From Carcharhinus amblyrhynchos (lineage: Eukaryota): DNA of 64,000 nt. Of the stretch, positions 11,303 to 62,470 are shown piece by piece. Positions within the stretch are counted from its first letter, which is position 1; each line of letters begins with the position of its first letter. The translations under genes and the position numbers were made by a program. Under the pieces are notes generated by a model, which was not told the origin of the DNA, did not search any database, and saw only the letters and a list, made by a program, of their open reading frames with translations. The DNA lies in NCBI GenBank assembly GCA_965287045.1, contig OZ336873.1, forward strand, positions 106,020,001 through 106,084,000. The letters are read 5' to 3'.

Positions 11303-11389
11303 GAATATAAAAACAAAAGAGGCTGAAAAATTTCAGCCCTTACTGCAGCATCCGTGGAGAAAGAAACAGATTTAACATTTTGACTCCAT
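11303..11389 (-). mobile_element. Penelope-like family P2 terminal repeat, left (inverted) arm
   Basis: Reverse complement reads ...aaatgttaaatctgtttctttctccacggatgctgc...tttcagcctcttttgtttttat, matching 62400-62470 and 12437-12550. Confidence 0.7.
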
Positions 11390-12410
11390 GGGGTCGACTC
11401 TCCCCAAAAAATTCTAAGTGCCGAATTTGCATAAAACTGGAGTAAATCCTGCTGGTTTTTTTTTTCAGCAGGAATTTCAAATTGAATCTCCCACACTCAG
11501 AGTGCCCTAATGTGAACTTCGTGAACAATCTGTGGCCGGGGTTTATTCCCGTTGGAGAGGCCCGCAGCGCAGCACTGAGCGGGCTACTGCGCATATGCCG
11601 ATCAGTTAGCACTGCGTTTGGTGCATGCGCAGTAGACCGCTGTGCTGGCCTCTTGCACAGCAAACCCCCCATTGCTGGCCATATGACCACCCCGTGACTC
11701 AATTGCTAGTCACCTGAACATGTCCGGGCCAACCTTGATCTCTTTCCCACCCCACACCCCCTACCCTGGTAGTCCCGATTTGCACACCTCCCCATCCCAC
11801 CTCGATGCACAGCCTCAATCACTAGCCTCCCTCCCTCTGCCACTGACCCCTCTGCAGAGTGGCAGCAGGACCCCCCATGTCTACCAATCGCCACGAGCCC
11901 CCGTCCCCTTGATTCTACCTGATGCCTGGTGGGCAGGTCAAGATGCCATCTGGGCATTGCCACTTTTGTCCCTTAGTGGTGCCAAGGGCTCAGGCTGGCA
12001 CTGCCAGGCTGGCAGCTCCCGGGAGTACTCCTAACCGCCCCCCAGCCCCACCGCCCCACCCCGCCCAAACCTCGATGGCCCCCTTTCATTCCAGCAGGGT
12101 TGGGCCGCTTGCTCCCAGTGCTGGGGAGCTCTTGTTAACTCCGCTGGAGTGAAATACTGCTGGTGGGGACAGAAATTCTAGCAGGCACGGAGACCCGGGC
12201 CTGCTAATTCAATGCAAATCATATTATAATTCTCATTTATTAAACAGCTCCGCACCGATTTCTGGCATAGAGCTGACGGCGCCGGAAATCCAGTTGACAG
12301 AGATTAATAAAGGCTGTGGCACCCGGCAGGAAGCTCGCAAAACAGCCCTCGCTTGAGTCTCCCAGCCCACTATGCTGCTTTTGCTGTGCAGCAGTCTGGG
12401 AGAATCGCCC
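11390..12410 (+). mobile_element. About 1-kb GC-rich non-autonomous TIR DNA transposon (PIF/Harbinger-like)
   Basis: Ends ggggtcgactctccc and gggagaatcgccc form imperfect TIRs; GC/CpG-rich interior with hairpin ctactgcgcat...atgcgcagtag; related to 58317-59140. Confidence 0.7.
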
Positions 12411-12414
12411 ACCA

Positions 12415-12550
12415 TATGATTGAAGACGAGGGCTTGAAATATTAACTCTCTTTCTCTCGCCACAGATGCCACCAGACCTACTGAGTTTTTCCAGCATTTT
12501 GTGTTTTTATTTCAATTTTCTAGCTACCACGGTGTTTTGCTTTTATTTTA
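12415..12550 (+). mobile_element. Penelope-like family P2 terminal repeat, right arm
   Basis: gaaatattaactctctttctctcgccacagatgccaccagacctactgagtttttccagcattttgtgtttttatttc...ttttgcttttatttt. Confidence 0.75.
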
Positions 12551-12929
12551 GTCAGAAATTAAGGACCAAGATGAATTACATTTCAAACTTCTAGTCGCAG
12601 TAACATCTTATGGATGGCCCCCCTCATGTTTCAGTAGTTGGTAAAGGTTGTATTTAGACCTGAGCCTTCGAATGGAAAACCTGAGCCCTAGAGTAGATGA
12701 AGCCCGGGCTCAATCTCTATGTGATGAGCTTGCCACTCTCAGTCTGGCCAATAATTATCTTTTAATCCCTGGGCTAGGGAGGACAGAAGTCATATGCAGA
12801 ACTCTGTTGGTTGAGTACAGATTTAGTGTGACATGATGGTTAAGTCATCTGTTTCACCTAGACTTACAGGTGAAGTTCGTAACATTCTGCACCATCTCCT
12901 TTCCTTCTCCCCTATAACTGGTAGCTTTG

Positions 12930-13005
12930 TCAGTATAGAGTGCAAGAACCAATACTTTTGACTATATCCCAATATATGTGATAGTAAAAATCAAATCAAA
13001 TCAAA
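12930..13005 (+). mobile_element. Short 3' tail of the Rex1/Babar-type LINE
   Basis: aatacttttgactatatcccaatatatgtgatagtaaaaatcaaatcaaatcaaa mirrors the tail at 10066-10130. Confidence 0.55.
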
Positions 13006-13489
13006 GAATGAACACTTTAATGTGGCAATGGGAAGTAGCCGTAGACACACAGTTCAAGGTGAGTCAGCACCTCAGGAAGGACAAATGTTTTAGTGGAGGA
13101 TAACGAATCCAGTTGATTTTGTGAAAATGACTGTTAGTCAAGTGAAGTGCACACCTTCAGAATTTCGAAATTTCAGTTGGACTGAGACAAAATCTAGGCT
13201 TGAATTTGGTTAGTAAAATATAAACACTGAAACATACAAGCACTTGAAGGTTGTGAATGAATAAAAATTCTGGAAGTGAGTATTTATAATGTCGGTGAGG
13301 GGTAGGTTTTTTTCAGCTGCTCAGCCTTAATTACGAAAACATATTTAATGAATAATTGGCTATTATTCCTCTATTGTCCAAGATGTTGAGACATGAATCT
13401 TCTGCCTATTTTTTGATCTGAACAAAAAGTAAAACTGCACCCTCTCAGCATCAGAATGACAAAGAAAGCTGACATGCAGCAGGGAAAAA

Positions 13490-13810
13490 GAAAGGAAGTC
13501 ATTGAATCACCTTAAAGCCAAAAACAATCGTGCTAATTACTTACAGCTTGTAATAAAACGAGGAGTTTAACAACCAAAGCATTTTCGGAGGCATTTTATG
13601 TTAAATCACCGCAGCAAGTTTTACCTTGATTTGTCAAATGATGATCAGTCACCGTGTAAAGTATTAACCGTAACAGTTTTCCTCATTTAAGGTGTGTTCA
13701 TTAAACCATTACATAATTATGTCGAGTTTATGGAATCCCAACAGAAAGAGGTCTATTAATGTAGCATGGATAATAAAATGGACAGCAGTCACACCTGCAC
13801 AGAAAATGGC
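13490..13810. promoter_or_regulatory. Candidate conserved non-coding element (enhancer)
   Basis: Non-repetitive, AT-rich, retains several CpGs, dense in TAAT/TTTATGG/AATAAA homeodomain-type words; conservation not testable here. Confidence 0.3.
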
Positions 13811-14885
13811 ATCATGTGGGAAGTAATACTAAACTTAATGATCTGTCATTCAGGCTTAGCTCTAACCTTGGAACGTGTATTTTTCTCTTTATGCCATATT
13901 AATAACCAAACTGAATTAACATAAAAATAAAAAATCTGGATTAGTTGGTGTTATGAGAAGAAGAGTATATAACCTTATGATTGAAGTCTAAATCTCCTTT
14001 ATAGAGAAGCTGAAATACATTTTTTGAAGATGATTAATATTTGTTACTGCAACAAAAACCCCGGTAGCTTTTCATTTCATAGGCATCTTACATCGCATCA
14101 TACTTTAAACTCAGAAATCTGATTCATCTTCCTCAATAAGTATATTTAAGCTGCCCTGTCCCTCTGTGACAATCTATTTGACAATTTCAAGTCAATTTCA
14201 GAAATTTGAAATCACCCAATGAGTGATTTTTCTGTGCTCATGTTGATTTAGAAGCAAAATGATCAGGGACAAAGAAACCACTGTGATGAATTGAATCCCT
14301 CAAAGTGCTCGATACAGCATTTGCTGTGTTAACTCCAGCATTTCCTGTATATTCAAAACAGTCATGTCATTTAGCAGACATCGTTGCAGAAACTCAAGAG
14401 GCTCAAAATGGACTTTTCCTCAGATTTAATTATATGTTTTAAACCCCTTTACCCTTGCTCAAGAATTGTTTTTCACCAGAAGCCCACCTAATTTTCTGGA
14501 CTTTATTTTGCGAAGGATGCGGCAATGAAGACTTGGGAAATGGATCTTATATCATGGCTCTGTAATCCATTCAAACGAGCAGATTCAATTAAATCTGTCT
14601 TAAGTAAGCTCTTTTTTATTTAAAAGCAGAGGTTAAGCTTTACATTAATTATGAGGGCTGTTTGTTGGTTGGACAGTAAAGTCCAATAATGGTCTTACTC
14701 TGTCTTTGTACTGTAGAACAGGTGCAATATCAATTGTCACCTCTAGCCATGCAGAAGCAAGAATGGCATTTCATGCCTCTAATGTCTGATCTTGAATAAT
14801 CATGGACACAATATGAAATCTCTTGCTGATTGTCTCAGTATTAGCACAGTGGCAACGTCGGTCCTTCCTCTGATCTCTGTAGGAA

Positions 14886-14998
14886 CAGAAATATCAACTC
14901 TATTTACTTTCTCCATAGACGCTGCCAAACCTGCTGACCTCTTCCAGCATTTTCTGTTTTTATTTCTGATTCCAGCATCAGCAGTATTTTGCTTTTAT
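14886..14998 (+). mobile_element. Penelope-like family P2 terminal repeat fragment
   Basis: gaaatatcaactctatttactttctccatagacgctgccaaacctgctgacctcttccagcattttctgtttttatttctgattccagcatcagcagtattttgcttttat. Confidence 0.75.
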
Positions 14999-15157
14999 GT
15001 TACCGTGCCATTGGCCAGAGAGCAAGCAAAGCAGAAATCGAAAGCAGTGCCTCTTAATGAAGCAGAGTTATCAAATCTAGTCTTTCTTCATCTTATATAC
15101 ACATAGGGCTACCACCACCACCACCCCCCCCCGCCCCGCCAACCAAAGCTTCGCAAA

Positions 15158-17808: not shown

Positions 17809-17930
17809 TTGTATCAAATTCTATTCACATTAAACAGGTTAATTTGTTTATTTAAAATGGACTAAGGGCATAGCTAAAGTAGCAGATGGAGGAATATCAG
17901 ACAGATGTCTAAATATTTTTGCATTACTAT

Positions 17931-18641
17931 TGTGTCTTTATTGTACAGTGAAACAATGGAGATGCAACAATGGACCATATTTTAACAAAGAAAATGGCAG
18001 ACTGTTCATTCTGGTGAGAAAAATGGCACTTTTCTCTCCATGGAAATAGGTTTCAGGCATTGTGTTTTTGTCCCATGCAGACAAGCAATATAAATTACTT
18101 TTCCTTCCCTAAAGATCTATACGTGGTGATCCTGAGTCTGTGCTCACTGTCCACAGGAATGATGGTGGGGGATCAAGATCTGGTGAAACCCAGAAGTCAT
18201 GAATCTTGCCGGCAAGGTTGTGACTTCTGATTTTTACTGTGCATCGCTAGCAATGCAATCAGGTTACCACCCATGGGTTTGCTGGCACTGATTGTTGAGA
18301 GGGGAGGAGGAAATGTGGTGAATGCTGGCTCTGATGGGGAGGAATTGGTCAGAGGATGTAGGTTGGGGGAGGAGGGAAGTTACTTTTTGGTCTGAAACCA
18401 AAAGATGAAATGTTGGAAAATCTCAGTAGGTCTGGCAGCATCTGTAAGGAGAGAAAAGAGCTGACATTTTGAGTCCAGATGACTCTTTGTCAAACTTTTT
18501 GTTTTTGTAAGAGAAAATCGACCTATTTCCATGGAGAGAAAAATGCCATTTTTCTCACCAGAATGAACAGTCTACCATTTTCTTTGTTAAAATATTGTCC
18601 ATTGTTGGAACTCCATTGTTTCAGTGTACAATAAAGATACA
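17931..18641. repeat. 121-bp inverted repeat (arms 17931-18051 and 18521-18641, 469-bp spacer)
   Basis: Hand alignment of arm 1 with the reverse complement of arm 2 gives 114/121 identical, no gaps. Confidence 0.95.
18391..18496 (-). mobile_element. Penelope-like family P2 terminal repeat with decayed hammerhead
   Basis: Reverse complement agt-ttgacaa-a-gagtc-atctg-gactc-aaaa-tgtc-agctcttttctctccttacagatgctgccagacc; stem II intact, core mutated. Confidence 0.75.
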
Positions 18642-20508
18642 CTAACGTGCTCAATATGCCTGCTGCAACAAAAGTAGGGACACAATGTCAAATCTTTGTC
18701 CACATCTGACCCTATATGAGCAGGCAACAGTTAGATTGTAATGGACAAGCTGAGTTGTATGTCTTTCACTCAGTCCCTATATGATACAGATATAGTATTG
18801 AGCCCATCTTTTCAACCTCTACAAAATACATACCAGAGAAATGATCCCAAGCGAGGATAAGAGCACACTTCTTGCACTGCATTATTTCAAGATTGTGATG
18901 TTGGCATGGGAACCATCAGTGTTATTTGGACATGTTTTCTTATTCCTTTTTAAAAATAACAGGATTTTCCACATGTAAAAATCCTCTTGAGAAACAAAAT
19001 TGCCGATAATATAGAATTGTTCTGCCTCTGATTCCATTCCTGCAAATGCTCTTTAAAATGCGAATAGATTCAATCGCTCCAATTTGAAATTTCTTCACCT
19101 ATTGAATGACTTCACTTTGTTTATCTTTGTAATTGTTTCAAATCACAACTGTGTGGATAATGCTTAAAATGCAAGTGGATCAATGTTCCTTAGATTAATA
19201 GCCCTTCCAAACGTCAACAGATTTTAGGCTTAGAAAAACAAATCACAAATAAGACACTGATATTTCAAATGCATCCCATAGCTACAGCTAACATTATCCG
19301 AATATAATTCAGATTGTTGAGTATTTGATTTTTCTACCTATCTCTGTCCCAATGGTGCCACCTATTTCAAAATAACACTATTTATCATATATTCCAGTTG
19401 TCTTTCGATGGTTCCACTGCTTAAGCCAAGTGCTGTTTACAAGGTTTTTTTCAATCACTAGTAATATAATTTTAGAAGGGGGAATAAATCTTTGTAAGGA
19501 TTTGGCATGCTTGTAAGAGCCTGGTTCATTTATACAAATGGATGGTAATTTCCTGTTCAACAAAAGGGTATTGTGGGAAAAAAAAACAGGAATTAGATCA
19601 AAATCTACTCAAAATCTCTTTTTTCATTGAAGGTTCTTTTATACATTTTCATCAAAGGACATTTTTTATATTGATCCCCTGGGATTTCAACAATTCTAGG
19701 TTGAGAGACCTGAACCTGAGCATATTGTGTAGCTGTCCAAACCACAGATCGATGCCCAATAAATGTCTTTCTATTAAATGAGGAGACACTGGAAAGGTCC
19801 AAATCATCTTACGTTTTTCACTGATTCTATTCCTTTGTGTTCACTGCATACGTTCAGTTCATTATTACTCAGATTTAATAATTCATGCTCCTTATTGGCT
19901 GCTGTTAGAAGTGCTTTGTGACATTAAGTTGCAATTAAGAAGGTATTACCAACTGATGTGTTGCTTAGAATTTTTCAATCCAGCTGAGGATATCCAAATA
20001 TTTTGACATATGAGAATGTACCGATATCAGAGAATATTTGACAACCAGATTGTTTACTGACCAAGATTGAGCTTTATGTGAGTAGATGACTTTTGGAGGT
20101 TTAAAATAATCTTCCTGTTTATTTAATGTCATAAAGAAATCACATTCTGGACTAACCTTTGAGTGCTGAAAGGCGTTTTAAGCTTTTAAGACCTGAACAT
20201 CATCTTCTGTTATATGTCAGCGAAGTAAAGTTTCTGTAAACTTCCTAAGCTGAGCATTGCAAGATCAAATTAAAGACTGGTAAAAGAAAAGGATCAAAAG
20301 GCTGTTCTGTCTCCTCGGGGGCCTGTGTCCAAATCCAACCCAAATACATAGAACATTAATTGTGGCTAAATTTGCAATTTTACTGCGATGTGAAATGGAA
20401 ACGTCAACCCAATTCAGCAAAATGTTACCCTGTAAATGGTGCAAATCTGAGCTGATATAGGATGGATCCACATCCATCTGATCAATGCCATACCTTTTAA
20501 TTCACTGC

Positions 20509-20826
20509 CTGTTCTGAAAACACTAACTCATGGTGGGCACATTCCCAAAACGTCATGATAGGGACAATCCCAGAGTGCACCTACTCACAGTGGGGACTGT
20601 TCCAGAATACATTAACTTGTGGTGGGGGCTGTTCTAGAACATGCTAATTCATGGTGGGGACATTTCCAGAACACAACTCACACTGGGGACATTTCCAGAA
20701 CACAACTCATGACAGCGACAGTTCCAGCATACATTAACTCATGATGGGGAAAATTTTGGAACAGAGACTCATGGTGGGGACAGTTCTAGATCGGACTAAC
20801 TCATCTCGAGGACAGTTCTAGAACAC
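20509..20826. repeat. Degenerate minisatellite, about 10.5 copies of a mostly 29-32 bp unit (acagttccagaacacactaactcatggtgggg)
   Basis: Recurrent gggac(a/t)(g/t)ttc(c/t)agaa...actcatg units directly visible. Confidence 0.85.
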
Positions 20827-21276
20827 ATGTTGGGCATGGCTCCTCTGCTGCTGAATAACAGTTGGGATCTTACCCAAATAATCTCTGTTCAAATACTGGA
20901 TCTGGACAGTAATCGTGGGCAGGATTCTTCTTACTTATTCTTACAACAGAGATTGGGATTGGGAATGGGAAAATAATGATTTTGATTTTCCACGCACTAA
21001 AGCCATTTGTAGAATATTTACTGCCAATGCAGCTGAGATTGATTAACAAAGCAATGATTTAAACTTCACATTTCCCTATCTTTAGGGCTCGGGACAATCG
21101 CAGATAGACTGTTTGTTCACTGAGGCATTAGGGGAGTTGCTAACTCATGTTTGATGTTTACATTGAGCTGAGAACCTTCTATTCCCAAAGAATTATTCCT
21201 CACCCTTGAGCAGCAGAAAATAAATTAGCAGAGTGTAAAAGCACTTGAAACTTTAAAACTGAGTATTGTTTGACTT

Positions 21277-21356
21277 AAAAATTGCTACATTATTAACAGT
21301 GTAAAATGTCATATAAAAATATGACACTTTACACTGTTGATAAAGTAGCACTTTTT
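21277..21356. repeat. Fold-back hairpin, 38-bp arms with 4-nt loop
   Basis: aaaaattgctacattattaacagtgtaaaatgtcatat / aaaa / atatgacactttacactgttgataaagtagcacttttt; 34/38 complementary. Confidence 0.9.
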
Positions 21357-22455: not shown

Positions 22456-22763
22456 ACATTGAAGATGGATGATTCACCAAACAAAATGCTAGCTTTATCC
22501 ATCGTGCTGATTCATAAAACATAAACTGCAACTCTTAGAATTTTCTGATTTTGTTTCAGATCACTCAGCTATTTTGCTGATTGCAGAACCGGTCAAATGA
22601 TGCTGCATTTCAATGCAGTTCAACAAGGAACCACCTATTGTTCTCCAGTTCTATTTAACTACCATCTTCAACAAGCATCAATATGCAATATAATTATTGC
22701 ACTGTCTCTGATTTTTTCCTGTAATGCATTGCAGTAAATTGTTTGTGTGGGGTATATCTTACT

Positions 22764-22890: not shown

Positions 22891-23984
22891 AATCGCAATC
22901 TGAGGTGCTGTGAGGAATGTGGTAAATATTCCCATAATCATCACCCTATGCAAGAATGTTAATTCAGAGGTGCAGCAGTGACAATTTATTTTTCATTACT
23001 CTGACTGTACAAAGAGTTCCTGCAGATTATTATGTTTTCTCATTACAATAAGAACTTTATCCATTATATAATTAAGCGTGTAAGCAGTGAGGAAGTAGGA
23101 AGATGGCTCTGTGTCACCTGAGATCCTTTTTTAGTCATGCAGACATATTAATTAAATTTATTTTTCTTTCAAAGACCTCCTTCTTGATATTATTTGAACT
23201 TGCAGCGATGTTTTGACTGATTTTGTGAGTCCATGTGTGATACTTGAGGTCGCTTTATTAGAACAGCTTGAATTGATTCATGTTTAATTATGGCACAGAA
23301 CATTGTTTAATCAGCATCTTCTCCAACTTAATATATGCCTGCAGGAGAATTTTTACCTGATCCACCAATGAACCAGTGGCTGAGTAGCTAAATACCCAGA
23401 GTGACATACCACCTGCTTCATTCCAATCCTGGCTTTTAACTTGTTCCTCTGGGCAGGCAACAAAGAGCAGTGAGGGTCTTCCTTTAAAGATGCAGATTAG
23501 ATGCGGTGATGCCCCCAAGCCCTAATTGAAGCAAACTGGGAGACAACTGAGACATGACGAAAGTTTGCAAAGGAATATTTTACTTTCTAATTTGGAGCCG
23601 AGAAGAGCGGGACAAACCAACTTTAGGCCTTCTCTGACTCATACTCACCCATGCCCTCATGCAAAACCTACTTCCCAAAATTTATTTACATGTTGGCAGG
23701 TAATCATGAGCTGTCCAGTTGAGATGAGGCACTTCCTACCTGACCAATGACACCAGAATCAAGTCAAAATTATTTTGCAGGAAAACTACATAGCATTGAA
23801 TTAATCCCTTAGTTTCAAATAGAATGCCCCATAACCAATAAGATGCTTTGAAATCAAAGATACATGTTATATCATGGAATATCCAGTATTCATCTGAACA
23901 GCGGTTTATATAGCATTACACTCCAGGGATTGGATGTGAAAGATACCGACAATATAACACAGCCAAATCTTAGCTGTATGATAT

Positions 23985-24186
23985 GGTGTGGAGGTGCCGG
24001 TATTGGATTGGGGTAAACACAGTAAGAAGTCTCACAACACCAGGTTAAAGTCCAACAGGTTTATTTCATAGCAAAAGCCACTAGCTTTCAGAGCGCTGAT
24101 GAAGGGGCAGTGCTCTGAAAACTAGTGGCTTTTGCTGCCAAATAAACCTGTTGAAATTTAACCTGGTGTTGTGAGACTTCTTGTTG
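23985..24186. mobile_element. Penelope-like family P1 fold-back mini-element with hammerhead motif and 10-bp TSD
   Basis: Arms aagaagtctcacaacaccagg...agctttcagagc and gctctgaaaactagtggc...gtgagacttctt; ctgatga at 24096-24102, gaaa at 24117-24120; TSD tgtatgatat at 23975-23984 and 24187-24196. Confidence 0.85.
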
Positions 24187-25431
24187 TGTATGATATAATC
24201 TAGATTTCCTAATAAAATACAACAGAAGATTATTGTGAAAAAAATTGTGTCCTTAAAATCATGGAAAGTGAATAAAGAGCTATTAGTTTCCACAAATAAT
24301 AGCTTGCATAAATTAAAACTGAGGTCATTGATTCAGATGAAAGACGCTTGACTTTTATAAAAGGCTCCACCCTGCAAATATTTGACCACAATGACACATT
24401 CCAACTGAAACAACTGGGATGCGGTACAAATATTGACAGCATAACAATAGCATGCTGTTGAAGTCCAAGGGATGCCAGTGGAGAGTTGGCAATTGTGCCA
24501 TGGATGTCTATGCGAGTCACATCCATGGTAAAATTGAGGCTCTGTATCCGAAGATGAAATCTCTGCCAATGAACTAAATGCAATGGATTCATCTCTTGGA
24601 TCAGATTCTGTTTATTAACTACTTGGCATCATGAATCCCATTATATAGTCATTGCCTTTTAATTCCCTCCCTAATGGATAGAGTGCATTCAGCCACACAC
24701 ACTTGTCACTGGTGGATCATCCACCTAGAGATGGTTGGGAGTTACAGACTTTATTCTCTTTTATTCTATTTACAGTTAATTTGGAGGAAAAAAGTGATTA
24801 ATTTTTAAATAGTTTTCTGTGATCTAGCTCTTGGAACTTCAACCATATCAACAATCCGGGGGAAATAAATCCCAAAACATGAATCATTTTGCATAAGAAA
24901 TTCTAGTCAAAACACATGATTGTGTCATAGCACCTATATTTTGGGTTTACAAGGGCAAATTTGGCTTCAAAATGGTGGCCACAGTACAAACATATATTTC
25001 TGGTGCTGGCCACTCTGGATGTGATTGTGGTAAAGGCATTAACACAAATACAGGGAGTGTACATTCAAAGTATGCAGCACAGGTAGATTGTGGGATCCAT
25101 AAGCATGTAACACTGATTTGAAGCCAGTGCGACTGTTTTAGACCTGAATGCTCCAGCTGAAGCCTCAATAGCCGAATGTGTGTCCAGCCGCAGGAAATAC
25201 CCCCATCCCCATCACTACCACCTATTCAAGGGATTCACCAACAACTTTCATGTTAGTAGCTGATTAATCTCCGCTGCTGCTACTAAAGTGGTAGGAGTGC
25301 CTATATGTTTGCATTGCTGGTTAAAGTTGCTGAAATCGACACCAAGCTACGTGACCCATGGTGAATGCCTAAGTTCTGACTTCTGGGGGTGGGGAGGACT
25401 TTCCTGTCCTGCCTGCCACGAAAATCAAGTA

Positions 25432-26045
25432 GTGTTTAACTTGGAGGAGTATTGATTCATAAGCTGAGCAGGGAGGGTACATGCTTATCAGCAGGAGGTT
25501 TCCTTGTCCATGTTTGACCAGGTGCCATTAGACTTCATGGTGTCCAGAATCAATGTTGAGGTCTCCCAGGGCAACTCCCTCCTGTCTGTGTCCAATGTGT
25601 CTCCACCCTGTTTGCAGGATAAGAAGTCTCACAACAGCAGGTTAAAGTCCAACAGGTGTGTTTGGTGTCATGAACTTTGAGAGCACTGCTCCTTCATCAG
25701 ATGAGTCACTTGATGAACGAGCAGTCCTCAGAAAGCTCTTACCAAATAAACCTGTTGGACTTTAACCTAATATTGTGAGACTTCTTACTGTGCCTATCCA
25801 GTCCAACGCCGGCATCTCCACATCATGTTTGCAGGGATGGTGATGCTGGTGTCTGGGATATAATCTGTAATGTGTGACTGCATGAATATGACTCCATCAG
25901 ACTATTGATTGACTAGTCTGTGAGACAGCTTTCCCTATTTTGGCACAAGCCCCCAGATGTTAGTTAGGGAGGACTTTACTGGTTTGTCAGGGCTGGGATT
26001 TCCAATGTCATTTCTGGTGCCTAGGTTAATGCTGAGTCTTTCATC
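25432..26045 (-). mobile_element. CR1-type LINE ORF2 N-terminal (APE endonuclease) remnant, split by a P1 insertion
   Basis: Minus strand reads approximately LTNIWGLVPKIGKLSHRLVNQ...IPDTSITIP...EGVALGDLNIDSGHHEV*WHLVKHGQGNLLLIS, typical of the start of a LINE endonuclease. Confidence 0.75.
25619..25825. mobile_element. Penelope-like family P1 fold-back mini-element with two decayed divergent hammerheads and 10-bp TSD
   Basis: Centre gagcactgctccttcatcag-atgagtcac-ttgatgaacgagcagtcctcagaaagct; TSD tgtttgcagg at 25609-25618 and 25826-25835. Confidence 0.85.
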
Positions 26046-31680: not shown

Positions 31681-32370
31681 AGATATAAAATGCATCAATC
31701 CTATTTTATTTCATAAGATCCACAGTATAACAAAGTGGAATATTTTATGTTATTCATTCACATACATAGGACAATTCAGTACAACCTACAAATTGAAACC
31801 ACATTACTTTATATGTGCAACTATAACAATGAAGTCTACAGAATACAAGTGTATGACAAGAGGTTTAGAATATAACAGTAAATCTATGTTAAACCTTTCT
31901 CATGACAACTGTTGAAGTATCTTGTGCAGCTTTCTGCCTCACACTATAAGAAAGATGTAGATGCAATAGAGAGGGTACAGGGTAGATTCACTGGATGTAT
32001 GGCATGAGGCAATACAGCAAGAGCGTAAAAATCAAGATGCTCTCATTTCCAAGGAAATTATGAGTGGTTTAATAAAAGATTTTATTTTTTTAATTATGAA
32101 GAATTGAGACAAGATTGAAACTGATTGCTCTAGTGATTCTAGGAGATGTAGTTAAAAGATTAAATGTGAGTAATTACGACACAGAGAAAGGGACCCTTTA
32201 TCCATGTTACGGATTGTGAGGTTGTGGAATGCTCTGCTGGATTTGGAATTTAAATAGGGGCCATTTAGAAATAGTTTAGATGACTGGTTGAAGAAAAGAG
32301 CAGTAAAGGAGTAAGTGAGTGGGTATTTAAGAGCTATAGTGCTAATCTCATGTGAATAAAAAACGGTCAT

Positions 32371-32500
32371 GATGTGCATATGCCGGCGTTGGACTGGGGT
32401 AAACACAGTAAAAAGTCTGACAACACCAGGTTTTAGTCCAACCGATTTATTTGATAGTAAACTCACTAGCTTTCGAGGGGTTTCCCTCTTCTTCAGGTGA
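32371..32500 (-). mobile_element. Penelope-like family P1 solo terminal repeat
   Basis: Near-identical to the reverse complement of 56097-56226; degenerate 12-bp TSD aaaaacggtcat (32359-32370) and aaaaacagtaat (32500-32511). Confidence 0.85.
32463..32500 (-). ncRNA. Minimal type-I hammerhead ribozyme motif
   Basis: Minus-strand RNA UCAC-CUGAAGA-A-GAGGG-AAAC-CCCUC-GAAA-G-CUA-GUGA: stem I UCAC/GUGA, intact CUGANGA and GAAA boxes, 5-bp stem II, loopless palindromic stem III (AGCU), NUH triplet CUA. Confidence 0.75.
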
Positions 32501-32759
32501 AAAACAGTAATATGGACTGGTTGGGCTGAGTTTTCTACTTCCATGCTGCAATGTCCCATTGTTATTTGACCTGTATAGATAAAGCAATGAATAGTACAGA
32601 ATTTGTTCTGGATTATAAATTTAAAAGGCTGTGGATATAATTTTCCAGCCCCATTGACTGTTGCTAACATCTGGTCCTGTCAAAAAATAAATTGACTTTT
32701 GGCTGGCATTCCACATTTCCTGTGGCAGATCCTGCCTCGACTGCGCTGGAACATTTTAT

Positions 32760-33116: not shown

Positions 33117-33185
33117 CCAGCCTATTTTATCAGAGAATAAACTACGGTGATGTTTTTTCATTATCAATACATTCTTTGTTTTGCC

Positions 33186-33351
33186 GCTAAAAGAAAGGTA
33201 AAATACAGCGGATGCTGGAATCTGAAACAAAAATATAAAAAGCTGGAAAATCTCAGTCGGTCTGACAACATCGACTCAAAAACGTTGGCTCTATTATCTC
33301 TCCATAGATACTGTCGGGCGTGTTGAGATTTTCAAGCTTTTTATATTTTTG
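33186..33351. mobile_element. Penelope-like family P2 fold-back mini-element with 12-bp TSD
   Basis: Left arm aaaatacagcggatgctggaatctgaaac...; right arm gactcaaaaacgttggctctattatctctccatagatactg...; TSD ctttgttttgcc at 33174-33185 and 33352-33363. Confidence 0.8.
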
Positions 33352-34829
33352 CTTTGTTTTGCCACATCTGCTTCGAAAAGTTTTACTTCACAGACAGGCA
33401 TGTAATGTGGAAAGCCAGTTTGACTTGTAATTGTAGTGTCTGACCTTTAATAGAACTTTTCTACTTATAGTGGAATTTTACACAGCAAAATGGTATTTCA
33501 ATACGTAAAACTACATTTCAACAGTTATTAAAGTTGCTCGCCAGAATCAGAGTTAATTTTGAAATGTAAGTGGCTTCTGATATTGGTACGGACATAACTG
33601 CTTAACCTGCTGAAGGTTGAAGTATGAGCTGAAATATTTCAGTTGTTCATGATTCATATCTTCAGATTGGTTGCTTATTGGTATTTGATGTTTTCATTTG
33701 TCTGAATAACATTTATTCTGCTAATACTGGTCTGCATTCTTTAAAACTAAATGGAAGTAAAATTGCTTTTTTCTTTAACTTACTCACCGATGGTTCATGT
33801 AAAATATGTAATCAGAAATTAGACTTGCACTTTCTTGTTGCTGCAGTCAAATGTCCATAAATATTACAATAATTTCTGGATTTGCAATGAAAGATGGCCA
33901 ATTATAAATGTGTGTATTACAATTACATTTTACACCCCCCAAAATTTCCTCATGCTTTCCTTCTTCTCTGGATCCTAAATTGGTAATTTATGCTGGACTA
34001 TGCGTCCCCAAGTCCATGCTGTAAACCTCAATGACTCTATGACTCTAAGTCCGTGCAATTCCCTCCTTTTTGACTTATGTGGTGAGGGGAGGGCTCATTA
34101 ATTAAAGCCATCATTAGTGAAGGAGGATGGCAGTTAGGGTTTTTTTTTAACACAGAAGACTGTAGGAATATGTAATGTTTTTCATACTGAGATATGGACC
34201 ATGAGCTTCTTTGAGGAAAAATTTGGTAAATATTTGTATCAGAAAAATATTCAAGACTATGGGAAGAGAGTAGGGCATTTGAGTTCATTTTCAATTGAGA
34301 TAGACTTTTTTTTAGTCGGTAAGGGAATCAAAGATTATGAGGTTAAGATGGGAAAGTGGAGTCAAGGACAATATCAAATAAGTTAATTGACCTACTTCTT
34401 CCTGTCCCTGTGTATTATGGGTTGCTTTAGAAAGGAGGTGACGAGCTGAGTGGCTTCCTTCAATTATGTATCAGTTTGTGGGTTCTTGGTCCTATATATG
34501 AGGCAGGATAGAAGCAAACCTCATTGTGGTATCTGCTGATGTGTTCCTGTACCGGAGATTATTTGAAAAATAGTCAGGAGATGCGATTTCTCAATGTTAT
34601 TTATCCCCGTACTCAGGAATTCTTGAAGCTAATTGCAGTGACAACACAACCCACCCATCACCACTAATGCTCTAGATCACTGAGCACAGTACTGTGCTAG
34701 CTATCACTTCATGCATTTATCCACAGAGGCACTGAAGGTGACAAGTTGTTTTAATCATTTTTTACCTTTAAAAGAAATATTATGTCATCGAGTTGGGCAA
34801 AGAGCTAATATTGGCCAGAACAATATGTA

Positions 34830-47190: not shown

Positions 47191-48141
47191 ATGCACATTT
47201 ATCTCTCTAAACTCTGTTCAATGTGTGCCTGATGTGTGTTTAACCCACTCTTGATGGTTTCCTAATTTCTTTTTGGGAGGGATTTCAAACTGGGTTGAGT
47301 TTCACTCTGCTACATTGAAATGAGCACCACAATGTCACGATGCCAACATAATTATTAATTCTGAACAGCCTAACTGGAGAGACACTTTGGCTGAAGCACG
47401 TGTATTTTTAACAGGTACAAATTGCAGTGAATATCCAGTAGGTTTAATGCTGAAATGGAGGACAGGAAGCTAATTAAACACAAGGTGAGTGCAAGTACTG
47501 TAATTAGCAAGAGACCCTCAACCCCAGCATCAAACCCTTAACCCTTTCAGCACTGAGAGACATTTTTGGCTCAAAACTCTCATCCTTTCATTTTCGTCGC
47601 ACCTGCATTTCATTGCTGGTATGATAAAGTAGAAGTGGAATGTGCTATTAACATAACATCACATTGGAAGTATTCTGTGAGCTGAAGTCTGGTTCCCTGA
47701 GTATCATTTACCTTGAAGTACCTTAAGTGGTTGTGTGACCCAGATAGTGTCAGTTGGCAGTTTCACTGGTGAGGTATTACGGCCAAATCTATTCCTACTT
47801 TTGCATATTCACATGATGCAACTTGTAGTAGAAATCACATAGACGATGAGCAAAAGAAAGAAAAAATTTCTCTGCAGCCAATCAGCATTCTGGTCGATTG
47901 TAAAGTTCCCCACTATTGATGCAGCTCAGATTTGCAAAATCAGCTAAAAGTGCTGATGTAACTCAAACACTTCTTGGTCAATATGGTTCAGTTATTGATT
48001 AAGCAATTCCTTCAGTCATCAGGGGAGGCCTATGTAAGGTGTAGTAAAGTGATGGATCGACGAAGGCCAGATCCATATGGTGACAGTTGCTTCATAGACA
48101 CTGTTCCTCAAGTATAATCAAATCAAGAGCAAGGTACTGTG

Positions 48142-48246
48142 AAAAATCAAAAATAAAATTGGAAAATGCTGTGAACACCCAGCAGTTCTGACAGCATCTG
48201 TGCAGAGAGAAGTATAACGTTTCTGGTTCATGACCTTTTGCCAGGC
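48142..48246 (-). mobile_element. Penelope-like family P2 terminal repeat with decayed hammerhead
   Basis: Reverse complement ctggcaa-aaggtcatgaacca-gaaacgtt-atacttctctctgcacagatgctgtcagaactgctg. Confidence 0.65.
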
Positions 48247-48439
48247 CAAAATTCAATGTCTGGTGATGTCACAGTCATTATGTTGTCTCTCCTACACTCC
48301 AGGATTTTATGCTCACAGCTATGATCTTAGATGCTTAGTTTGAAAGAAAAATAGGCAGTAATTATATTTTACCTCATTAATACTTACTGTTTCTCATCTA
48401 ATGTTCTTGAAGTGCAGTTACTTCTGTTATGTAGGCACC

Positions 48440-49195: not shown

Positions 49196-49197
49196 TA

Positions 49198-51365: not shown

Positions 51366-51859
51366 ATAATACATGCAGCTCCATGCCGATATTGGCTGGG
51401 TTAGTCAATGCGTTAAACTGTTTGCATAGAAGGGTACAGATCAGAGAGATCGTGAAGAGATCATGAAGAGATCAAGAATTTTTAATCATGAAGTGATACT
51501 ATATTAGCTATGTTGAGACAGGAGCATAGCAAGATATTGCACTTGACTTCAATGCCCCTGAGAAAGGGAAAATATCCAGTAATCAGTGTGCCCTGATGAG
51601 AAGTTCATGAGAATGACCATGGGGATCAGGCTTGACCTCCCTTTATAGCCAAATACTTACTTAAGATTCACAGTCTGGGCTCATACGGGTTAGTTGTACA
51701 AAGTACCAGGTGCTGGCTAAAGCCCAAAAAAACAGCAGCAGTGTTCATTACTCCAACCAAGTGTGCAGCCATGCATTTGAACATACAGTAAGATTCAAAC
51801 CAAAAGGAATCTTAATTGAGGCATAGCTGAGCCTTCATAAATTGACCTGGTGGATTTTA

Positions 51860-51962
51860 AATAATAACAGGAAGTGCTGGAATAACTCAGCGGGTCTGGC
51901 AGCATTTGTGGAAAGAAACAGTAACTGCTTCTCAAGTCCCTATATAACTACTCTTGGAGCTA
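51860..51962 (-). mobile_element. Penelope-like family P2 terminal repeat fragment
   Basis: aacaggaagtgctggaataactcagcgggtctggcagcatttgtggaaagaaacag. Confidence 0.65.
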
Positions 51963-54900: not shown

Positions 54901-55720
54901 CAAACTATTGCTATTTCTTTTCCTCATTCACTCTCATTTTCTTTCACCAACACCAGTTTTATTGTTGGTTAGAAAATTTACAACCTCAATCCTCTCATGT
55001 AAGCTCCATATTTTGTTTCCATCCGTGTCTGGCTTTTATTGAAACATATGCAATTATCCCACAATCTTTCAGGTTTTCTTTGTATTGAAAATGCTGTCTA
55101 TGTCTGAATATGGCATGTGAAGCCAGTGTGTAGAGAAATGGGGCTTTACAGTGAGGTAAAACAACACTCTTTTCTCAGAAGCACAAATAACAGGAGGACA
55201 AATTCTGTTTGTCTTTCTCTGAGGTGACATATACGTGCTTCAATTCAGCAATGGGCAATTATTAAAGTGTAATCACTACCGGAAGAAAAAGTATGGATTA
55301 GTTTATTTTCCAAGGTGTATAATCTTGGAATTATAAAAACGTAGAGATCAGAGGGAGGCTAATTGAGAGAAAGAAAATAATTTGAAATACATTGTCACTT
55401 TTTTTATATCCCTAATATTATCTAGATAACCATTTTGGAATGGCGCCTTGAAACAGCGAGGCTATCCCTTTATGAAGATATCCTTTGCAGGAATCTAAGT
55501 CCATTCTTCATCCTTTAAAAATTGCTGAATCTAAAACTGCATAACCTACCATGTTTGTAATTAGGTCACCCTAACTAATGGAATCTAATGTATGTCACAT
55601 CATTATATAATGATAGAACAACTAGCAATCCATAACAACCTATATAGTAGTATACGTTCTGATGTCAAAAATCAAGAGTGATGGCAAACAGAAGGATTAT
55701 AAAAGGCTTAAAGACATTGA

Positions 55721-56226
55721 CATCTCGCCAAGGCCATCCCCACACCCCCCACTACTTGCCTTCAAACAACCGTGCAATCTCAAACAGACCATTGTTCACA
55801 GCAACTACCCAGCCTTCAGGAGAACAGTGACCACAATGCCACACAACTCTGCCACAGCAATCTCTGCAAGACATGTTGGATCATTGACATGGATGCCATC
55901 GTCTCACATGAGAACACCGTCCACCAGGTACAGAGTACGTACTCGTACAACTCGGCCAACATTGTCTGTCTGATATGCTGCAGGAAAGGATGTCCCTAGG
56001 CATGGTACGTCGGCGAGTCCATGCATCGGATGAATCAACATTGTTTGACAATCACCAGGCAGGGGCGTTCCCTTCCTGTTGGGCAACACTCTCCCATTCA
56101 CCCAACGAAGAGGGGAACCTCGAAAGCTTGTAAGTTTAATATCAAATAAATCGGTTGGACTTAAACCTGGTGTTGTCAGACTTCTTATTGTGTTTACCCC
56201 AGTCCAACGCCGGCATCTCCACATCA
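55721..56226 (+). mobile_element. 5'-truncated Penelope-like element (family P1): GIY-YIG endonuclease remnant plus terminal repeat, 12-bp TSD
   Basis: PPLLAFKQPCNLKQTIV...CHSNLCKTC...NSANIVCLICCRKGCP*AWYVGES...LPVGQH (PLE linker and GIY-YIG); terminal repeat 56097-56226 with aataaa; TSD taaagacattga (55709-55720) and taaagacgttga (56227-56238). Confidence 0.9.
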
Positions 56227-56262
56227 TAAAGACGTTGAGGTTACTGGAATGTGAAGACAGTT

Positions 56263-56547
56263 AATTTTATTTATCAGTATTACATAAATAGGCTTACATT
56301 TAAGACTACAATGAAGTTACCATGAAAATCCCCTAGTCGCCACACTCTGGCACCTATTCGGATACACTAAGGGAGAATTTAGCATAGCCTATGCACCTAA
56401 CCAGTACTGTGGGAGGAAACTGGAGTACCTAGAGGAAATCCATGCAGACACGGGGGGAACATGCAGAATCCACAGAGACAGTGACCCAAGCCGGGAATCG
56501 AACCTAGGTCCCTGGAACTGTGAGGCAGAGTGCTAAGCACTGTGCCA
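56263..56547 (-). mobile_element. HE1/V-SINE-like SINE, tail type B
   Basis: taggcttacatt...aatgaagttaccatgaaaatcccctagtcgccacactc...ctgtgaggcagagtgctaagcactgtgcca. Confidence 0.9.
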
Positions 56548-57995: not shown

Positions 57996-58039
57996 TGTGA
58001 ACTGTAAAAAAAAATTGCATCCATTACATCTAACCCTGG

Positions 58040-58310
58040 CTACAAGCATTGGATTTTCATTAATTTTTGCACATAGACCGATGAAGTCATGTTTGTTCAT
58101 ACAGGGAAGAAAATTAAATGAGTGTTCAACACAGCAGCTTTGATTCACAGTCAAACCTGTTCAATTGCAACCGCTCAAATCGTTGTCTGAAAATTAAACC
58201 AGAAAGTCTAAACAATAAAGGCAGTAAAAAATCCAGGAAGGTTTGGCATACATTAATCTTTATTTGCCCAACTTTTATGAAACGGCGTAGAATAATGGTG
58301 AATACAGTAA
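58040..58310. promoter_or_regulatory. Candidate conserved non-coding element
   Basis: Non-repetitive island between two transposons, with retained CpGs, aacaat (Sox-like), ttttatga and attaat words. Confidence 0.25.
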
Positions 58311-58316
58311 TGATAA

Positions 58317-59140
58317 GGAGCAAAAATTTCCCAGGAAAATTCTGAGCGTCATAACAGGGAGGTAACTGGAGTCTTCCATGCCAGACTTGTTGGTGAGGAC
58401 TGCGTAGTGATCTTCCGACATTCTTTCACTTTTCTTGACAATTGGAAGCCTTGGCCTGGTACAATGGTGTGGGGGTGGGGGCGTGGTTTGGGGAGATGGT
58501 GGAGGTGAACCTTCAGTGAGCTTGGGCGCAATTCTGCAGGGCGACCTCTTCCCACCTCCCTTTCACAGATATTGGACCTTCCCCTCCACCAATGTCACCC
58601 CCCCCACAGCAACATGGGTTGCTGGCATCAGGGCATCTAGTCCCTCTCGAAAGGTACCCTGGCAGACTCCTGACATGCCACTCCCCCCACCCCCTGTTAA
58701 AATGCATAGGTCTCCCGTCATAGCCCCCACTGAGACCCCAGCCCCTTGTCACTGCCCTAGCACACTTATGGTGCCCGGCTGGCATTGTCGGGGTGCCAGG
58801 TGGGTAATGTATGATGGGCATGCCTGGTCATGTCCCAGACCACCCAGGGGCTTTAATGGCCTCTACTCCCCCCCCCCCACCCCCATATGGCATGGCACCT
58901 GATCTCCACTGGTGGAGACCTGTAGCGGTTTGTGCTGGCGTGACATCTCGACGGAGAGTAGGGAAGCATCTAGGAGCAGGGAAGCATCTGGGAGCAGGGA
59001 AGTAGCAATGCTGGCTTGCTAATGATATGGAAATCAAGGCACACTGATGCTGGGTGTGAATTGGATTTTTGGCCTCTGAAACAATGTTCCCAACTCTCCA
59101 TGCTAATCGGCAGGCACGGCGAGTTGGTAAGATCGCATCC
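58317..59140 (+). mobile_element. GC-rich non-autonomous DNA transposon related to 11390-12410
   Basis: Start tttcccaggaaaattctgagcgtc...aactggagt parallels ctccccaaaaaattctaagtgcc...aactggagt; shared ggctggca(c/t)tg core; internal 18-bp tandem agggaagcatct(a/g)ggagc at about 58960-59002. Confidence 0.6.
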
Positions 59141-60339
59141 ATTATCTTACAAAGACAAACATTCTTCACAGGGTGCCGTTGCCATTTGTTATCTTCAGCT
59201 TTCAACAGGCAGCCACCAATGGGATTTTACAAACTCTTTTGTGATTAATCCAACTAAGCAGCGCTCTTGCATCATTGGCCATCCTCCTTTCATACTTCTG
59301 CTTCCTGAAGCAATTCTCATTCTTATCCAAATCTTCAACATGCAGACTTTCCTTTGCAAAGCTCCGGAAACCTGAAATTCAGAAATGCTGTTTTCCTTCA
59401 TGAGGAACTTTGGAATCCTCAGTTCCCTTTTGGCTTTTCTTGTCGAGTTATCTATAAATGCAACTTCCATATATGTTACTGCAATTATTGTTAAAGCAAG
59501 CTTTTCACAATTAGAATTTAAAGGAAGGAAAAAATAGGGCCTTTAAAAATGGTTGGGTTAAAATTCCAATAAGTGATTTGAAAATAATCAGAGATGGCAG
59601 TAATATAGTCAGGAGTAAAATTATTTATTTTACTTGATAACTGTGTCTGACTACAGACTTGTATTTTAATGGAGCAAATAAGGGAAGCAGGGAATCGTTA
59701 GTACAGAGGCAACAGTGAAGTGTCAGGCGTTAGTGCATCCAGTAGTAATTGAAATGCCAGATAATTTGAATCAGACATCTTTAAATTAAAGGAAGTGGAA
59801 TGTGGTGAATGTACTTGTAGAAGTCTTGCACCTTGAACATGCCCAACACTTTACAGATATCCCAATTAAAGTGTCACATCTTGTTATATAATGATCTTAA
59901 AACGTAGTGCGAAAGCAAGTCTACTGCTTTCTTTCTTCTGACCTGAAGTCTGAAATTTACCGGCAGTTGCAATTACCTGGATTTACTGACATTGTCCAGT
60001 TTCCCCACAGTGGGGATTAAACAGTGAATTTGAAGGGAGAAGTCCGATTTAAGCAGCGTTCCATTTTAGCAGCTAAGCATTATAATGATGCTCCAAAGTA
60101 CAGGGTTACCCATGACTCATGCTGCTCGTATGTGGGACAGAAATGTTCAGGCTGAGGACACTAAACAGGGCTGCTCTCTGCATTCAAGCACAAGACTAAT
60201 TAAATATGTACTATCTGACTTTGGGGCCAGTTTTATAAATGCTCACTATCAGAGAGGAACTTTTCCTTGAAGAATCAGGGTATCATGGACAAACTGTCCA
60301 CCAAGTACTAACCACTAACTTTTTGAGGCAGCAAATCTT

Positions 60340-60780
60340 GGGTAACAAGCCGATAATTTTCCATTACGAGTAAGTCAGTAGCTAACATGAATAATGCGTG
60401 ATACATGTAACCTGCATATGTTACACTATATTAGCATAGGAAAGATTATTGTCTTGTACATTTTGTTCCCACTGTTGTATTAATTAGATGGGGAAGCATT
60501 TCTAATTGTGTCGCACATCATGACTTGGAGCTTCCCATTGATGAGTACCCACTTTCTTAACTGTATGTTAGTATGAATGCATCACACCACTTAACACCTT
60601 GAAGGGTTATTTGACTTTATTTTTTGTGATGAAAGGAAATGTTAAGCTGCTAAATAATGCTTAATTGACAGCGCTCTTTTGCATATGCAAGCCGACTTAT
60701 TTCTTGCTAGCTTCATGGCAAAATGACTTTTCATGAAACAGAAATGCATCATAGCTTTCATTCAAAAAGCCCTAAGTTAT
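60340..60780. promoter_or_regulatory. Candidate conserved non-coding element with POU/TALE-type motif cluster
   Basis: ttaattgacagcgctcttttgcatatgcaa at 60661-60690 (TAATT, TGACAG and the palindrome ttgcatatgcaa). Confidence 0.3.
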
Positions 60781-61727
60781 TGCAAATTAAAAATTAAATA
60801 TTAAAAAGAATATATAGTGCCATTATACATGAGATACCGATGCTCTTCATGCAGCTAGAAGATGTTATTCCTTAGTTTTATCAAAATAAGTTCAGTGGCA
60901 TTGGATTGTAACCCTCTGATTCCTCATTCACAGTATATTTCCAAAGATGGCAGGGAAAAGATAAAAGATAAAATACATTTGCATTGTAAAGGCAGATTTG
61001 GGTATGTAACATTTGTCGTACAGTCCTTTTTATGATCATCAATTTTGACTACAGTGCAGATGATGTGACAGGTAGTGGGTGATTTTGTCAGCAAACACTG
61101 ATAGTAACATGACTGACAGAACCTTATTTGAGCTCCAAAAAAGTAACTTAAACATTAATGCCCTCAATACTGAAAGAGTAGTTATAATTCACCATAACTT
61201 AGTGCATTGTTCCTGAACTGCACTTGGTATTGTTTTTAATTTTTTATTCTTCCACAAGGTGTCTCATGACATAATCCAATTAGTTATGAATCATGAACTA
61301 CATTGCTGTGCTCCCATACATACAAGAACTCCTAGGTTGTACAGGGAAACACTATCTACTTTTAAAGCTGGCCCATGCAGCAAGCAAATTACTATGTTGT
61401 GGTCCAAAAGCAAAATCCTCTCTGGCTCTTTTATTTCAAATCCCTCCATTGCCTTGCTCTACTTCAAATTATCTTTTCCAGCAGTTTTCCATTCCAATGT
61501 TTTCTGGATCGGCTCAACTTTCTGGACCCAGTATTTAATGACAACACTCGTGCATCAGGAATTCTTCTTTGCAACTGTCTTGATATGTTTGCCAAAAACC
61601 TCCAGCCTTATTTGCGGCTGGGATTCTCTGGTGCCACTGAAAGTGAATGGAGTTTTGGCTGGAATACTAAATTCTTCGTGTTCACTTGCAGTGAGGCTGT
61701 CCTGGATGAGACCGGAGAATCCCACCC

Positions 61728-61973
61728 ACTATCTCTCACTGTCATCCAGCTTGGTGGGACTGCTCTCACCTGGTTCCATTCTTAGCTATTTAATTGTAGC
61801 CAGCGAATCACCATTAGTGACTTCTCCTCCTATTCCTGGATCACTACCTCCTGTGTCCTCCTATCCTTTGGCTCCCTCCTATTTCTTATATACATGTTGC
61901 CCCCTTGACAAAATCATCTGAAAACAAAACATCAGTTTTCACAAGTACATTGATGACAACCAGATCTATCTCT
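61728..61973 (+). mobile_element. L2-type LINE RT fragment
   Basis: LSLTVIQLGGTALTWFHS and LLFLIYMLP...KII*KQNISFHKYIDDNQIYL (decayed YADD motif). Confidence 0.75.
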
Positions 61974-61989
61974 GTTTTAATCTCATGTA

Positions 61990-62470
61990 GTGTTCAAACG
62001 AAGCTCGAGGGACGACGTCTCATCTTTTGATTAAATACTTTACAGCCTTCCAGACTGAACATTGAATTCAACAATCTCAAACTGTAATCTCTTCCCCCCA
62101 CTCCCCTCAATTTTTGCCCTTTTTCTTTGTGTGTTGCCATTTAATCTTGTCTTTCTCTTGCTATCACTTTTAATCGGCGCCATCATTCTGTCATTCGCAT
62201 TGCTCCCAGACACACCTTTTGTATCTTTACTCATCCCATTGCCACTCCCTTTGACCTTGGATCATCAACATTTTTGCCATTTAATTGCTCCTGCCACAGA
62301 TCTTCCTTTTTGTTCTTTTTTTACCCTGTCCTCTTTCACTTGCTACAAATCAATCACATTTCTAACCTTTTCTGGTTCTGATGAAACGTCACAGATCTGA
62401 AATGTTAAGTGTTTTTCCCTTCTCAGGTGTTGTCGAAATGGCTGAATATTTCCAGCATTTTCCTTTTTTT
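61990..62470 (+). mobile_element. Penelope-like element 3' end (family P2): GIY-YIG C-terminus, pyrimidine-rich UTR, hammerhead-bearing terminal repeat
   Basis: 62001-62087 translates as KLEGRRLIF*LNTLQPSRLNIEFNNLKL* (cf. E..LI.RL.TL.P.GLN end of PLE GIY-YIG); ctgatga at 62378-62384 and gaaa at 62399-62402. Confidence 0.85.

Follow-up and report, generated by a model that had tools for sequence, protein, structure and literature searches.

Short terminal-repeat copies of two Penelope-like elements in Carcharhinus amblyrhynchos as likely products of individual insertions

Penelope-like elements (PLEs) that encode an endonuclease (EN+ PLEs) are known to insert with an inverted, 5′-truncated copy of their terminal repeat (pLTR), a tail of 30-40 bp and a target-site duplication (TSD) (PMC8557442, PMC3846280, PMC2377424). 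The pLTRs of metazoan PLEs carry minimal type-I hammerhead ribozymes, which consist of CUGANGA, an unpaired A, a highly variable stem II closed by G-C, GAAA and a loopless palindromic stem III; dual motifs lie 100-700 bp apart on opposite strands, and most motifs are single and 'probably related to truncated PLEs' (PMC4209133). Type-I hammerheads are also present in non-LTR retrozymes, which are short, non-coding and related to pLTRs (PMC7229834; bioRxiv 10.64898/2026.07.22.740005). Here we describe two unrelated repeat families, P1 and P2, identified by self-comparison and profile searches in 64,000 nt of the Carcharhinus amblyrhynchos genome (OZ336873.1; this whole stretch is called the window below), whose short units resemble the retrozymes in these respects.

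Each family represents the terminal repeats of one PLE with a Neptune-type endonuclease, a clade name given on the linker motif. According to the original prediction, their short units (130-210 bp) may form a ribozyme-processed, non-autonomous system, SINE- or retrozyme-like (SINE, short interspersed element), that is mobilised in trans. This is largely contradicted: junctions are mostly unique, sizes are continuous with those of coding copies, ends usually lie upstream of the ribozyme cut, and head-to-tail arrays were not encountered in the DNA surveyed. What is seen fits ordinary PLE debris, whose layout has been described before. With a probability of roughly 0.78, the short units are stub-sized and for the most part decayed insertions, each formed afresh from parent RNA when it landed, and were not amplified as units.

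P1 and P2 are like other EN+ PLEs in having a partial tandem, an inverted upstream copy, a tail at one end that corresponds to the start of the open reading frame (ORF), a TSD of 8-16 bp, and a pLTR that serves as both 3′ and 5′ untranslated region (UTR). A single ORF for reverse transcriptase (RT), with a GIY-YIG endonuclease at the C-terminal end, accompanies the one-end tail, the inverted 5′-truncated copy and the TSD; inverted terminal-repeat pairs had rightly been recognised as a known PLE insertion product (PMC8557442, PMC3846280). Unlike the insertions described, those of P1 and P2 are mostly only 130-270 bp long and number hundreds of thousands of copies, and their end positions can be counted. 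Three features reported below (one tail per fold-back in 31 of 31 cases, chimeric arms and a fixed 5′ edge of P2) are not stated for EN+ PLEs in the available text of PMC8557442, PMC3846280 and PMC2377424. The hammerheads are of the same minimal type-I motif as those of Cervera and de la Pena (2014; PMC4209133), again as opposite-strand pairs and solo motifs; the accessible part of that paper names no sharks and shows no P1 or P2 sequences. None of the papers listed by literature searches deals with the hammerheads of shark PLEs. The preprint cited above (bioRxiv 10.64898/2026.07.22.740005) includes one chondrichthyan genome, and the two families may be present in its supplements, in Repbase or in Dfam.

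Parent elements and copy number

The intact P1 parent, found at four loci (L296-L299), has a unit of 3,024 bp and an ORF of 893 aa for RT and GIY-YIG, with 98-99% identity among the ORFs. The partial-tandem structure that forms the pLTR was seen for P1 only, at these same loci. The RT matches PF00078 (E 5e-10) and the GIY-YIG motif gives a weak PDB match to T4 endonuclease II (E 1.2); no GIY-YIG domain was detected by Pfam in the P1 and P2 proteins. The GIY-YIG region of P2 is 30% identical to that of P1 (E 1e-16), and the P2 pLTR lies 3′ of the GIY-YIG ORF in 16 of the 18 loci retrieved by the P2 protein. Within the linker that connects RT to the endonuclease, P1 has CX5CxxC and P2 has CX4CxxC; CX2-5CxxC at this place is a trait of the Neptune clade, common to Nematis too (PMC8557442). 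The P1 unit is composed of the hammerhead, ~90 nt and a 35-nt tail, and it aligns as a whole to the parent leader. Because the tail ends at the parent ATG, the short P1 unit is the 5′ leader of the parent.

The P1 parent, near-identical among its copies, is probably still active. The P1 parent family is very young, with many 917-codon open frames among 150 scored matches, and full-length parents (L296-L299 and others) are often arranged in head-to-head or tandem pairs. A first look with the P1 remnant of the window gave 32,645 candidates in the genome, and with the P2 endonuclease 13,597.

Copy number was estimated from a systematic sample of 130 evenly spaced 10-kb stretches, that is, 1.3 Mb of the 2.9-Gb genome. 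It contained 115 P1 and 97 P2 arms, grouped into 82 P1 and 79 P2 insertions. By extrapolation there would be ~260,000 P1 and ~220,000 P2 arms, roughly 360,000 insertions genome-wide, or ~8 insertions per 64 kb. The window has 6 P1 and 10 P2 arms in 11-12 insertions, and its density is therefore unremarkable: the about 11 loci of the original prediction represent a density that is ordinary for this genome. Several times P1 copies were seen in or directly beside P2 copies (L014, L024, L028, L050, L058, L270), by target preference or by mere density.

Formation of the short copies

Many of the short copies are fold-backs, in which two head-to-head copies lie within one TSD, one ending at the tail end and the other at the tail start. 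If such units were amplified as units, they should share internal junctions. In young P1 copies (n=29), the meeting point of the inverted arms differs each time. An exact-pattern census of the genome, with P1 junctions read by eye, gave 28 different junctions in 31 P1 fold-backs, including one identical pair 40 kb apart and one perfect palindrome. Each of the 31 P1 fold-backs of the systematic sample has its own junction pair, and their lengths range from 136 to 1,425 bp. With coding copies included the sizes are continuous from 136 bp to 6.6 kb, and the same inverted layout surrounds the coding copies L093, L094, L095, L098 and L296. For P1, descent from short masters, recognisable by a shared junction with private variants, was not supported. 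Head-to-tail arrays of short units were found neither in the window nor in the 1.3-Mb sample, rare arrays elsewhere being possible; same-strand neighbours within 600 nt are limited to 3 P1 and 3 P2 cases in 1.3 Mb, none with a repeated full unit.

Some junctions do recur. One P1 junction is found in 7 loci among the first 50 of 1,289 pattern loci. These seven loci carry seven different stem II variants, and among the five with readable tails both polarities occur (4:1), which indicates that this junction arises repeatedly at a microhomology. The junction test thus spoke against clonality for P1, whose junctions are mostly unique, and revealed a recurrent palindromic class for P2.

It is highly improbable that the short units are a non-autonomous, ribozyme-processed, SINE- or retrozyme-like system amplified in trans, and for P1 this idea is largely refuted. 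The copy number would suit it, as would the narrow size class (23 of 31 P1 fold-backs in the sample are 136-274 bp) and the recurrence of junctions in 7/50 P1 and 12/50 P2 fold-backs; passenger DNA can be mobilised in trans by pLTRs (PMC3846280), and retrozymes have been proposed to be PLE derivatives (bioRxiv 10.64898/2026.07.22.740005). However, the recurrent P1 junction is not clonal, and arrays are lacking in the sequence surveyed while sizes grade into those of coding copies. The outer end of the inverted arm is fixed at the tail start, where a re-copied hairpin would be variably truncated, and copies retain the core that cleavage would remove. Retrozymes are built, moreover, as tandem repeats in head-to-tail order, for which PMC7229834 describes canonical ribozymes and circular RNA, whereas P1 and P2 units stand alone or head-to-head, and their cores are minimal and for the most part broken; no head-to-tail repeats each with an intact hammerhead were seen in the window and the 1.3-Mb sample.

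The arrangement of tails is informative about how de novo insertions may form. In the systematic sample, exactly one arm is tailed in 31/31 P1 and 15/17 P2 fold-backs, and two tails occur in none (two P1 and one P2 fold-back at sample edges are left out of this count). In 10 of 90 cases the tail end runs 6-12 nt into the ORF start, so that the ORF must have followed the tail in the template. Arms of different subfamilies are joined in L312 and L314, and probably in L304. Many junctions of the young P1 fold-backs and of the P2 pattern loci contain short filler copied from nearby element sequence. Such fillers resemble the templated insertions of microhomology-mediated end joining.

A comparable situation is known in vitro for PAc/Poseidon of Anolis, where RT can start at two neighbouring internal sites that delimit the tail (Frangieh et al. 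2024, PMC11167929). There, both target strands are cut and extended, product length is set by the RNA 5′ end, and hammerhead cleavage is not needed (PMC11167929). PAc belongs to the Poseidon clade, its tail lies ~111-118 nt into the ORF, and its start sites show no strand preference (PMC11167929). In P1, by contrast, the ATG marks the tail end and the linker of the parent is Neptune-type, and the genomic fold-backs of P1 and P2 have one of each start site. From the genomic arm patterns, together with the two start sites and the extension of both strands in vitro, we infer two priming events per insertion. Very probably, the element protein nicks both target strands and reverse transcription is primed at two fixed RNA sites, one per strand. 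Short microhomologies or palindromes would then serve to join the two cDNAs, in many cases together with templated filler.

Self-priming on an antisense template has been proposed earlier (PMC3846280); one cDNA would fold back at a palindrome and copy itself. Palindromic junctions are indeed common, and the two arms of a locus tend to be alike: most of 43 arm pairs are within one edit in their ribozyme variant, and in 17 P1 pairs the similarity is 0.92 within a locus vs 0.83 between arms of other loci. Nevertheless, 12 of 31 P1 fold-backs have a tail-less arm that surpasses the tailed one by at least 15 nt on the 5′ side. A single self-primed cDNA cannot account for a longer arm that is tail-less beside a shorter one that is tailed, and the chimeric arms of L312 and L314 also contradict it. 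Self-priming is thus an unlikely source of the fold-backs.

Three observations count against formation of the short copies from parent RNA by two priming events. First, one perfectly palindromic junction is present in 12 of 50 P2 fold-backs (first 50 of 96 loci). Second, a full-length P2 ORF was not found in the 18 retrieved loci, the longest open frame having 513 codons. Third, one of the four full-length P1 loci, L297, has tails on both ends, maybe as a result of two events.

Where the copies stop, and the hammerhead

Positions are counted here from the hammerhead core, with the predicted cut at +28 in P1 and +31 in P2. In the systematic sample, 44 of the 83 P1 arms at risk stop at -11..+15, where the per-base stop rate is ~tenfold that far upstream; for P1 fold-back arms alone the proportion is 29/51. 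Read by eye in the first 50 of 96 P2 loci, no more than 3 of 100 arms extend beyond -6, and this P2 edge lies ~30 nt downstream of a conserved TATAAAT-like box. Cleaved RNA would lack the core and end at +28 or +31; the ends are mostly upstream, and the ribozyme cut does not define where the stubs end.

Our preferred explanation for the shortness of many cDNAs, somewhat favoured though unproven, is run-off at the 5′ end of an RNA that would start just upstream of the hammerhead, ~30 nt downstream of the TATA-like box; the sequence pattern argues for it more strongly in P2 than in P1. A promoter within the pLTR is known in Drosophila (PMC2377424), and a TATA/Inr pair has been noted in rotifer pLTRs (PMC3846280).

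Several results weigh against run-off at a defined start. Many young P1 arms pass -6, where the P1 start is predicted, and reach -14 to -28 (by eye, first 50 of 1,289 loci). A strict TSD search of single arms succeeded for 9 of 70 P1 arms (four not true singles) and 4 of 65 P2 arms (null 1/60), and the true single P1 copies so defined start at -78, -39, -24, -19 and -7, with no hard P1 edge. Poor alignment of the decayed upstream UTR biases the end positions of P2 in the systematic sample. Finally, there is a mild excess of P1 ends around the cut, at +24..+40 (15/99), 7 of them within 3 nt of +28. Two sharper candidates lost ground: the spread of young arms to -14 to -28 made an abrupt P1 start at -6 less likely, and the first 50 of 671 young fold-backs (by eye) showed no spike of ends at the ribozyme cut.

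Tentatively, the ends could pile up for another reason, namely that RT stalls at the folded ribozyme or that the palindrome-rich zone supplies joining microhomology. In favour of this are the recurrence of junctions at palindromes and 2-4 nt microhomologies and the spread of young P1 arms from -3 to -28. Against it, ends do not accumulate at the 3′ foot of stem II (1 of 84 P1 ends at +16..+23), the arms of P2 stop at -3 to -5 also where filler lacking microhomology joins them, and single copies begin there too (32501 and 18497 in the window). It is doubtful, too, that a minority of copies derive from hammerhead-cleaved RNA with 5′ ends at +28 (P1) or +31 (P2). Ends lie within 3 nt of the cut in 7/113 P1 and 6/97 P2 arms, and stops at +24..+40 occur at 3-4 times the rate of the far background, but the ~10 of 100 arms starting at +27..+29 (first 50 of 671 young fold-backs, by eye) do not exceed a flat spread, 0 of 36 P2 fold-back arms end at the cut, and ends at the cut were not found in Anolis RNA-seq (PMC11167929).

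The minimal type-I hammerheads of these terminal repeats had been identified correctly at the level of each family consensus. The CTGANGA...GAAA motif had been said to open the copies themselves wherever that part is retained; it is present in the consensus, and the full core (including NN-UH) is kept in only 3 of 16 window arms (24096, 32496, 62378), and in the arm at 24096 the 5′ strand of stem I is lost at the junction. The hammerhead is a trait of the family consensus and not of most copies. Neither the window nor three family loci gave a hammerhead in Rfam, where the only matches were hairpin-like microRNA (miRNA) ones below the gathering score. In P1 the strict core is present in 124 of 190 arms covering the region, stem III is the palindrome AGCU, and stem II pairs better than expected: over 60 variants the pairing is 3.23, vs a mean of 2.59 and a maximum of 2.92 in 1000 swaps of halves, with G-C/A-U exchanges. 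In P2 the strict core is found in 14/124 arms and stem II pairing shows no excess (2.29 vs 2.16 swapped); the stem III letters are consistent with CpG decay of ACGU, and the P2 consensus is consistent with a hammerhead after such decay. P2 is older than P1. The hammerhead would travel as part of the leader, and its predicted active form is a dimer within tandem transcripts; a two-copy minimum free energy fold did not yield a clean intermolecular stem III. Among the P1 parents, the ORFs are 98-99% identical, yet hammerhead stem II differs by compensatory changes, and L297, tailed at both ends, carries unlike hammerhead variants in its 5′ and 3′ pLTRs (L297:673, L297:3698).

The window and what the copies may record

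All loci listed in the original prediction could be placed in P1 or P2 (Table 1), and reversed-sequence controls of the window gave 0 matches to either family.

Table 1. Copies and remnants of P1 and P2 in the window (ORF, open reading frame; TSD, target-site duplication)
Feature	Position	Strand	Details
Tail-less P2 arm, decayed	11307..11395	-	probable left arm of an interrupted fold-back
Tailed P2 arm, decayed	12425..12545	+	probable right arm of the insertion of 11307..11395; ends without TSD
Lone tailed P2 copy	14879..14997	+	without 5′ half of hammerhead
Lone tail-less P2 copy	18391..18497	-	begins ~4 nt upstream of decayed core; TSD 9/10 at 18382, 18494
Weak P2 tail fragment, additional to the earlier list	22537..22578	+	profile match
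P1 fold-back	23983..24190	tailed arm - (23983-24094), tail-less arm + (24096-24190)	TSD 10/10 at 23975-23984, 24187-24196
Minimal type-I hammerhead core, kept	24096..24127	+	stem I 5′ strand replaced by junction; stem III position altered
P1 fold-back	25619..25826	tail-less arm -, tailed arm +	cores of both arms mutated; TSD 10/10 at 25609-25618, 25826-25835
Lone tailed P1 copy	32369..32501	-	start ~4-5 nt upstream of core; hammerhead intact, 32463-32499; TSD 8/9 at 32359 and 32500; 91% identity to parent pLTR
P2 fold-back	33186..33372	tailed arm -, tail-less arm +	both arms without core; TSD 8/9 at 33179, 33357
Lone tailed P2 copy, decayed	48126..48252	-	profile match
Lone tail-less P2 copy, decayed	51854..51949	-	profile match
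P1 parent ORF remnant, 5′-truncated	55720..56090	+	linker Zn-finger-like motif and beginning of GIY-YIG; stop and frameshifts
P1 pLTR and tail	56081..56227	+	core mutated; TSD 11/12 at 55709-55720, 56227-56238
P2 parent end, 5′-truncated	61977..62470	+	GIY-YIG C-terminus 61977-62081, pyrimidine-rich 3′ UTR, pLTR with hammerhead core 62374-62410

Both GIY-YIG remnants proved real: that of P1 is 82.6% identical to the full-length parent, and that of P2 matches the C-terminus of the P2 endonuclease with E 6e-6. A ~365-nt internal deletion (parent 2709 to 3075) joins the P1 remnant to its pLTR at 56081. The TSDs that had been claimed for five insertions fall into two classes. Three are strong, those of the two P1 fold-backs and of the P1 remnant with its pLTR, with scores reached by 1% of 300 random intervals. 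The weaker three (18391, 32369 and 33186) rest on their position at element ends, because a score of 8 arises in 16% of such intervals. Four fold-backs had likewise been proposed; three are clear, and the fourth (11307/12545) is probable, split by a ~1 kb repeat and without TSD. This other dispersed repeat (11388-12411) has short imperfect terminal inverted repeats and was apparently inserted in the P2 fold-back.

The P2 copy at 18391 is enclosed by a 717-bp element (17928-18644) that resembles a miniature inverted-repeat transposable element, with 124-bp terminal inverted repeats (94%). A further fragment of the P2 parent endonuclease (64% identity) lies at 9933-10081 and adjoins 10066-10145, which is repeated in inverted orientation at 12924-13004. 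There are also two near-perfect 80-bp hairpins (21277-21356 and 4755-4833), of which 21277-21356 is weakly miRNA-like in Rfam, and a degenerate tandem array with units of ~30-32 bp (20509-20827). About 12 copies of a ~320-bp SINE-like repeat are present, at 4717, 16178, 17462, 22148, 42678, 45529, 46602, 46940, 48623, 51095, 56260 and 62706. We presume this repeat to be HE1-like.

As a new mobile system the short units would have mattered in their own right; their remaining value is mechanistic. We see even chances that the stubs are a genome-wide record of PLE insertion, in which one complex primes both cut strands, always one at each tail end and sometimes from two pLTR copies, and in which priming at the leader/ORF site runs off the transcription start upstream of the hammerhead. 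If true, this would account both for the mass of pLTR stubs with which PLEs flood genomes and for the dependence of full-length copies on tandem templates. How PLE inverted repeats and tails originate is treated as an open question in the papers cited, and this genome gives hundreds of thousands of dated junctions. Approximately half a million arms, many of them hairpins that score as microRNA-like, are to be annotated as PLE ends. In addition, the very young P1 family with its many intact ORFs offers a direct test ground for the insertion mechanism.

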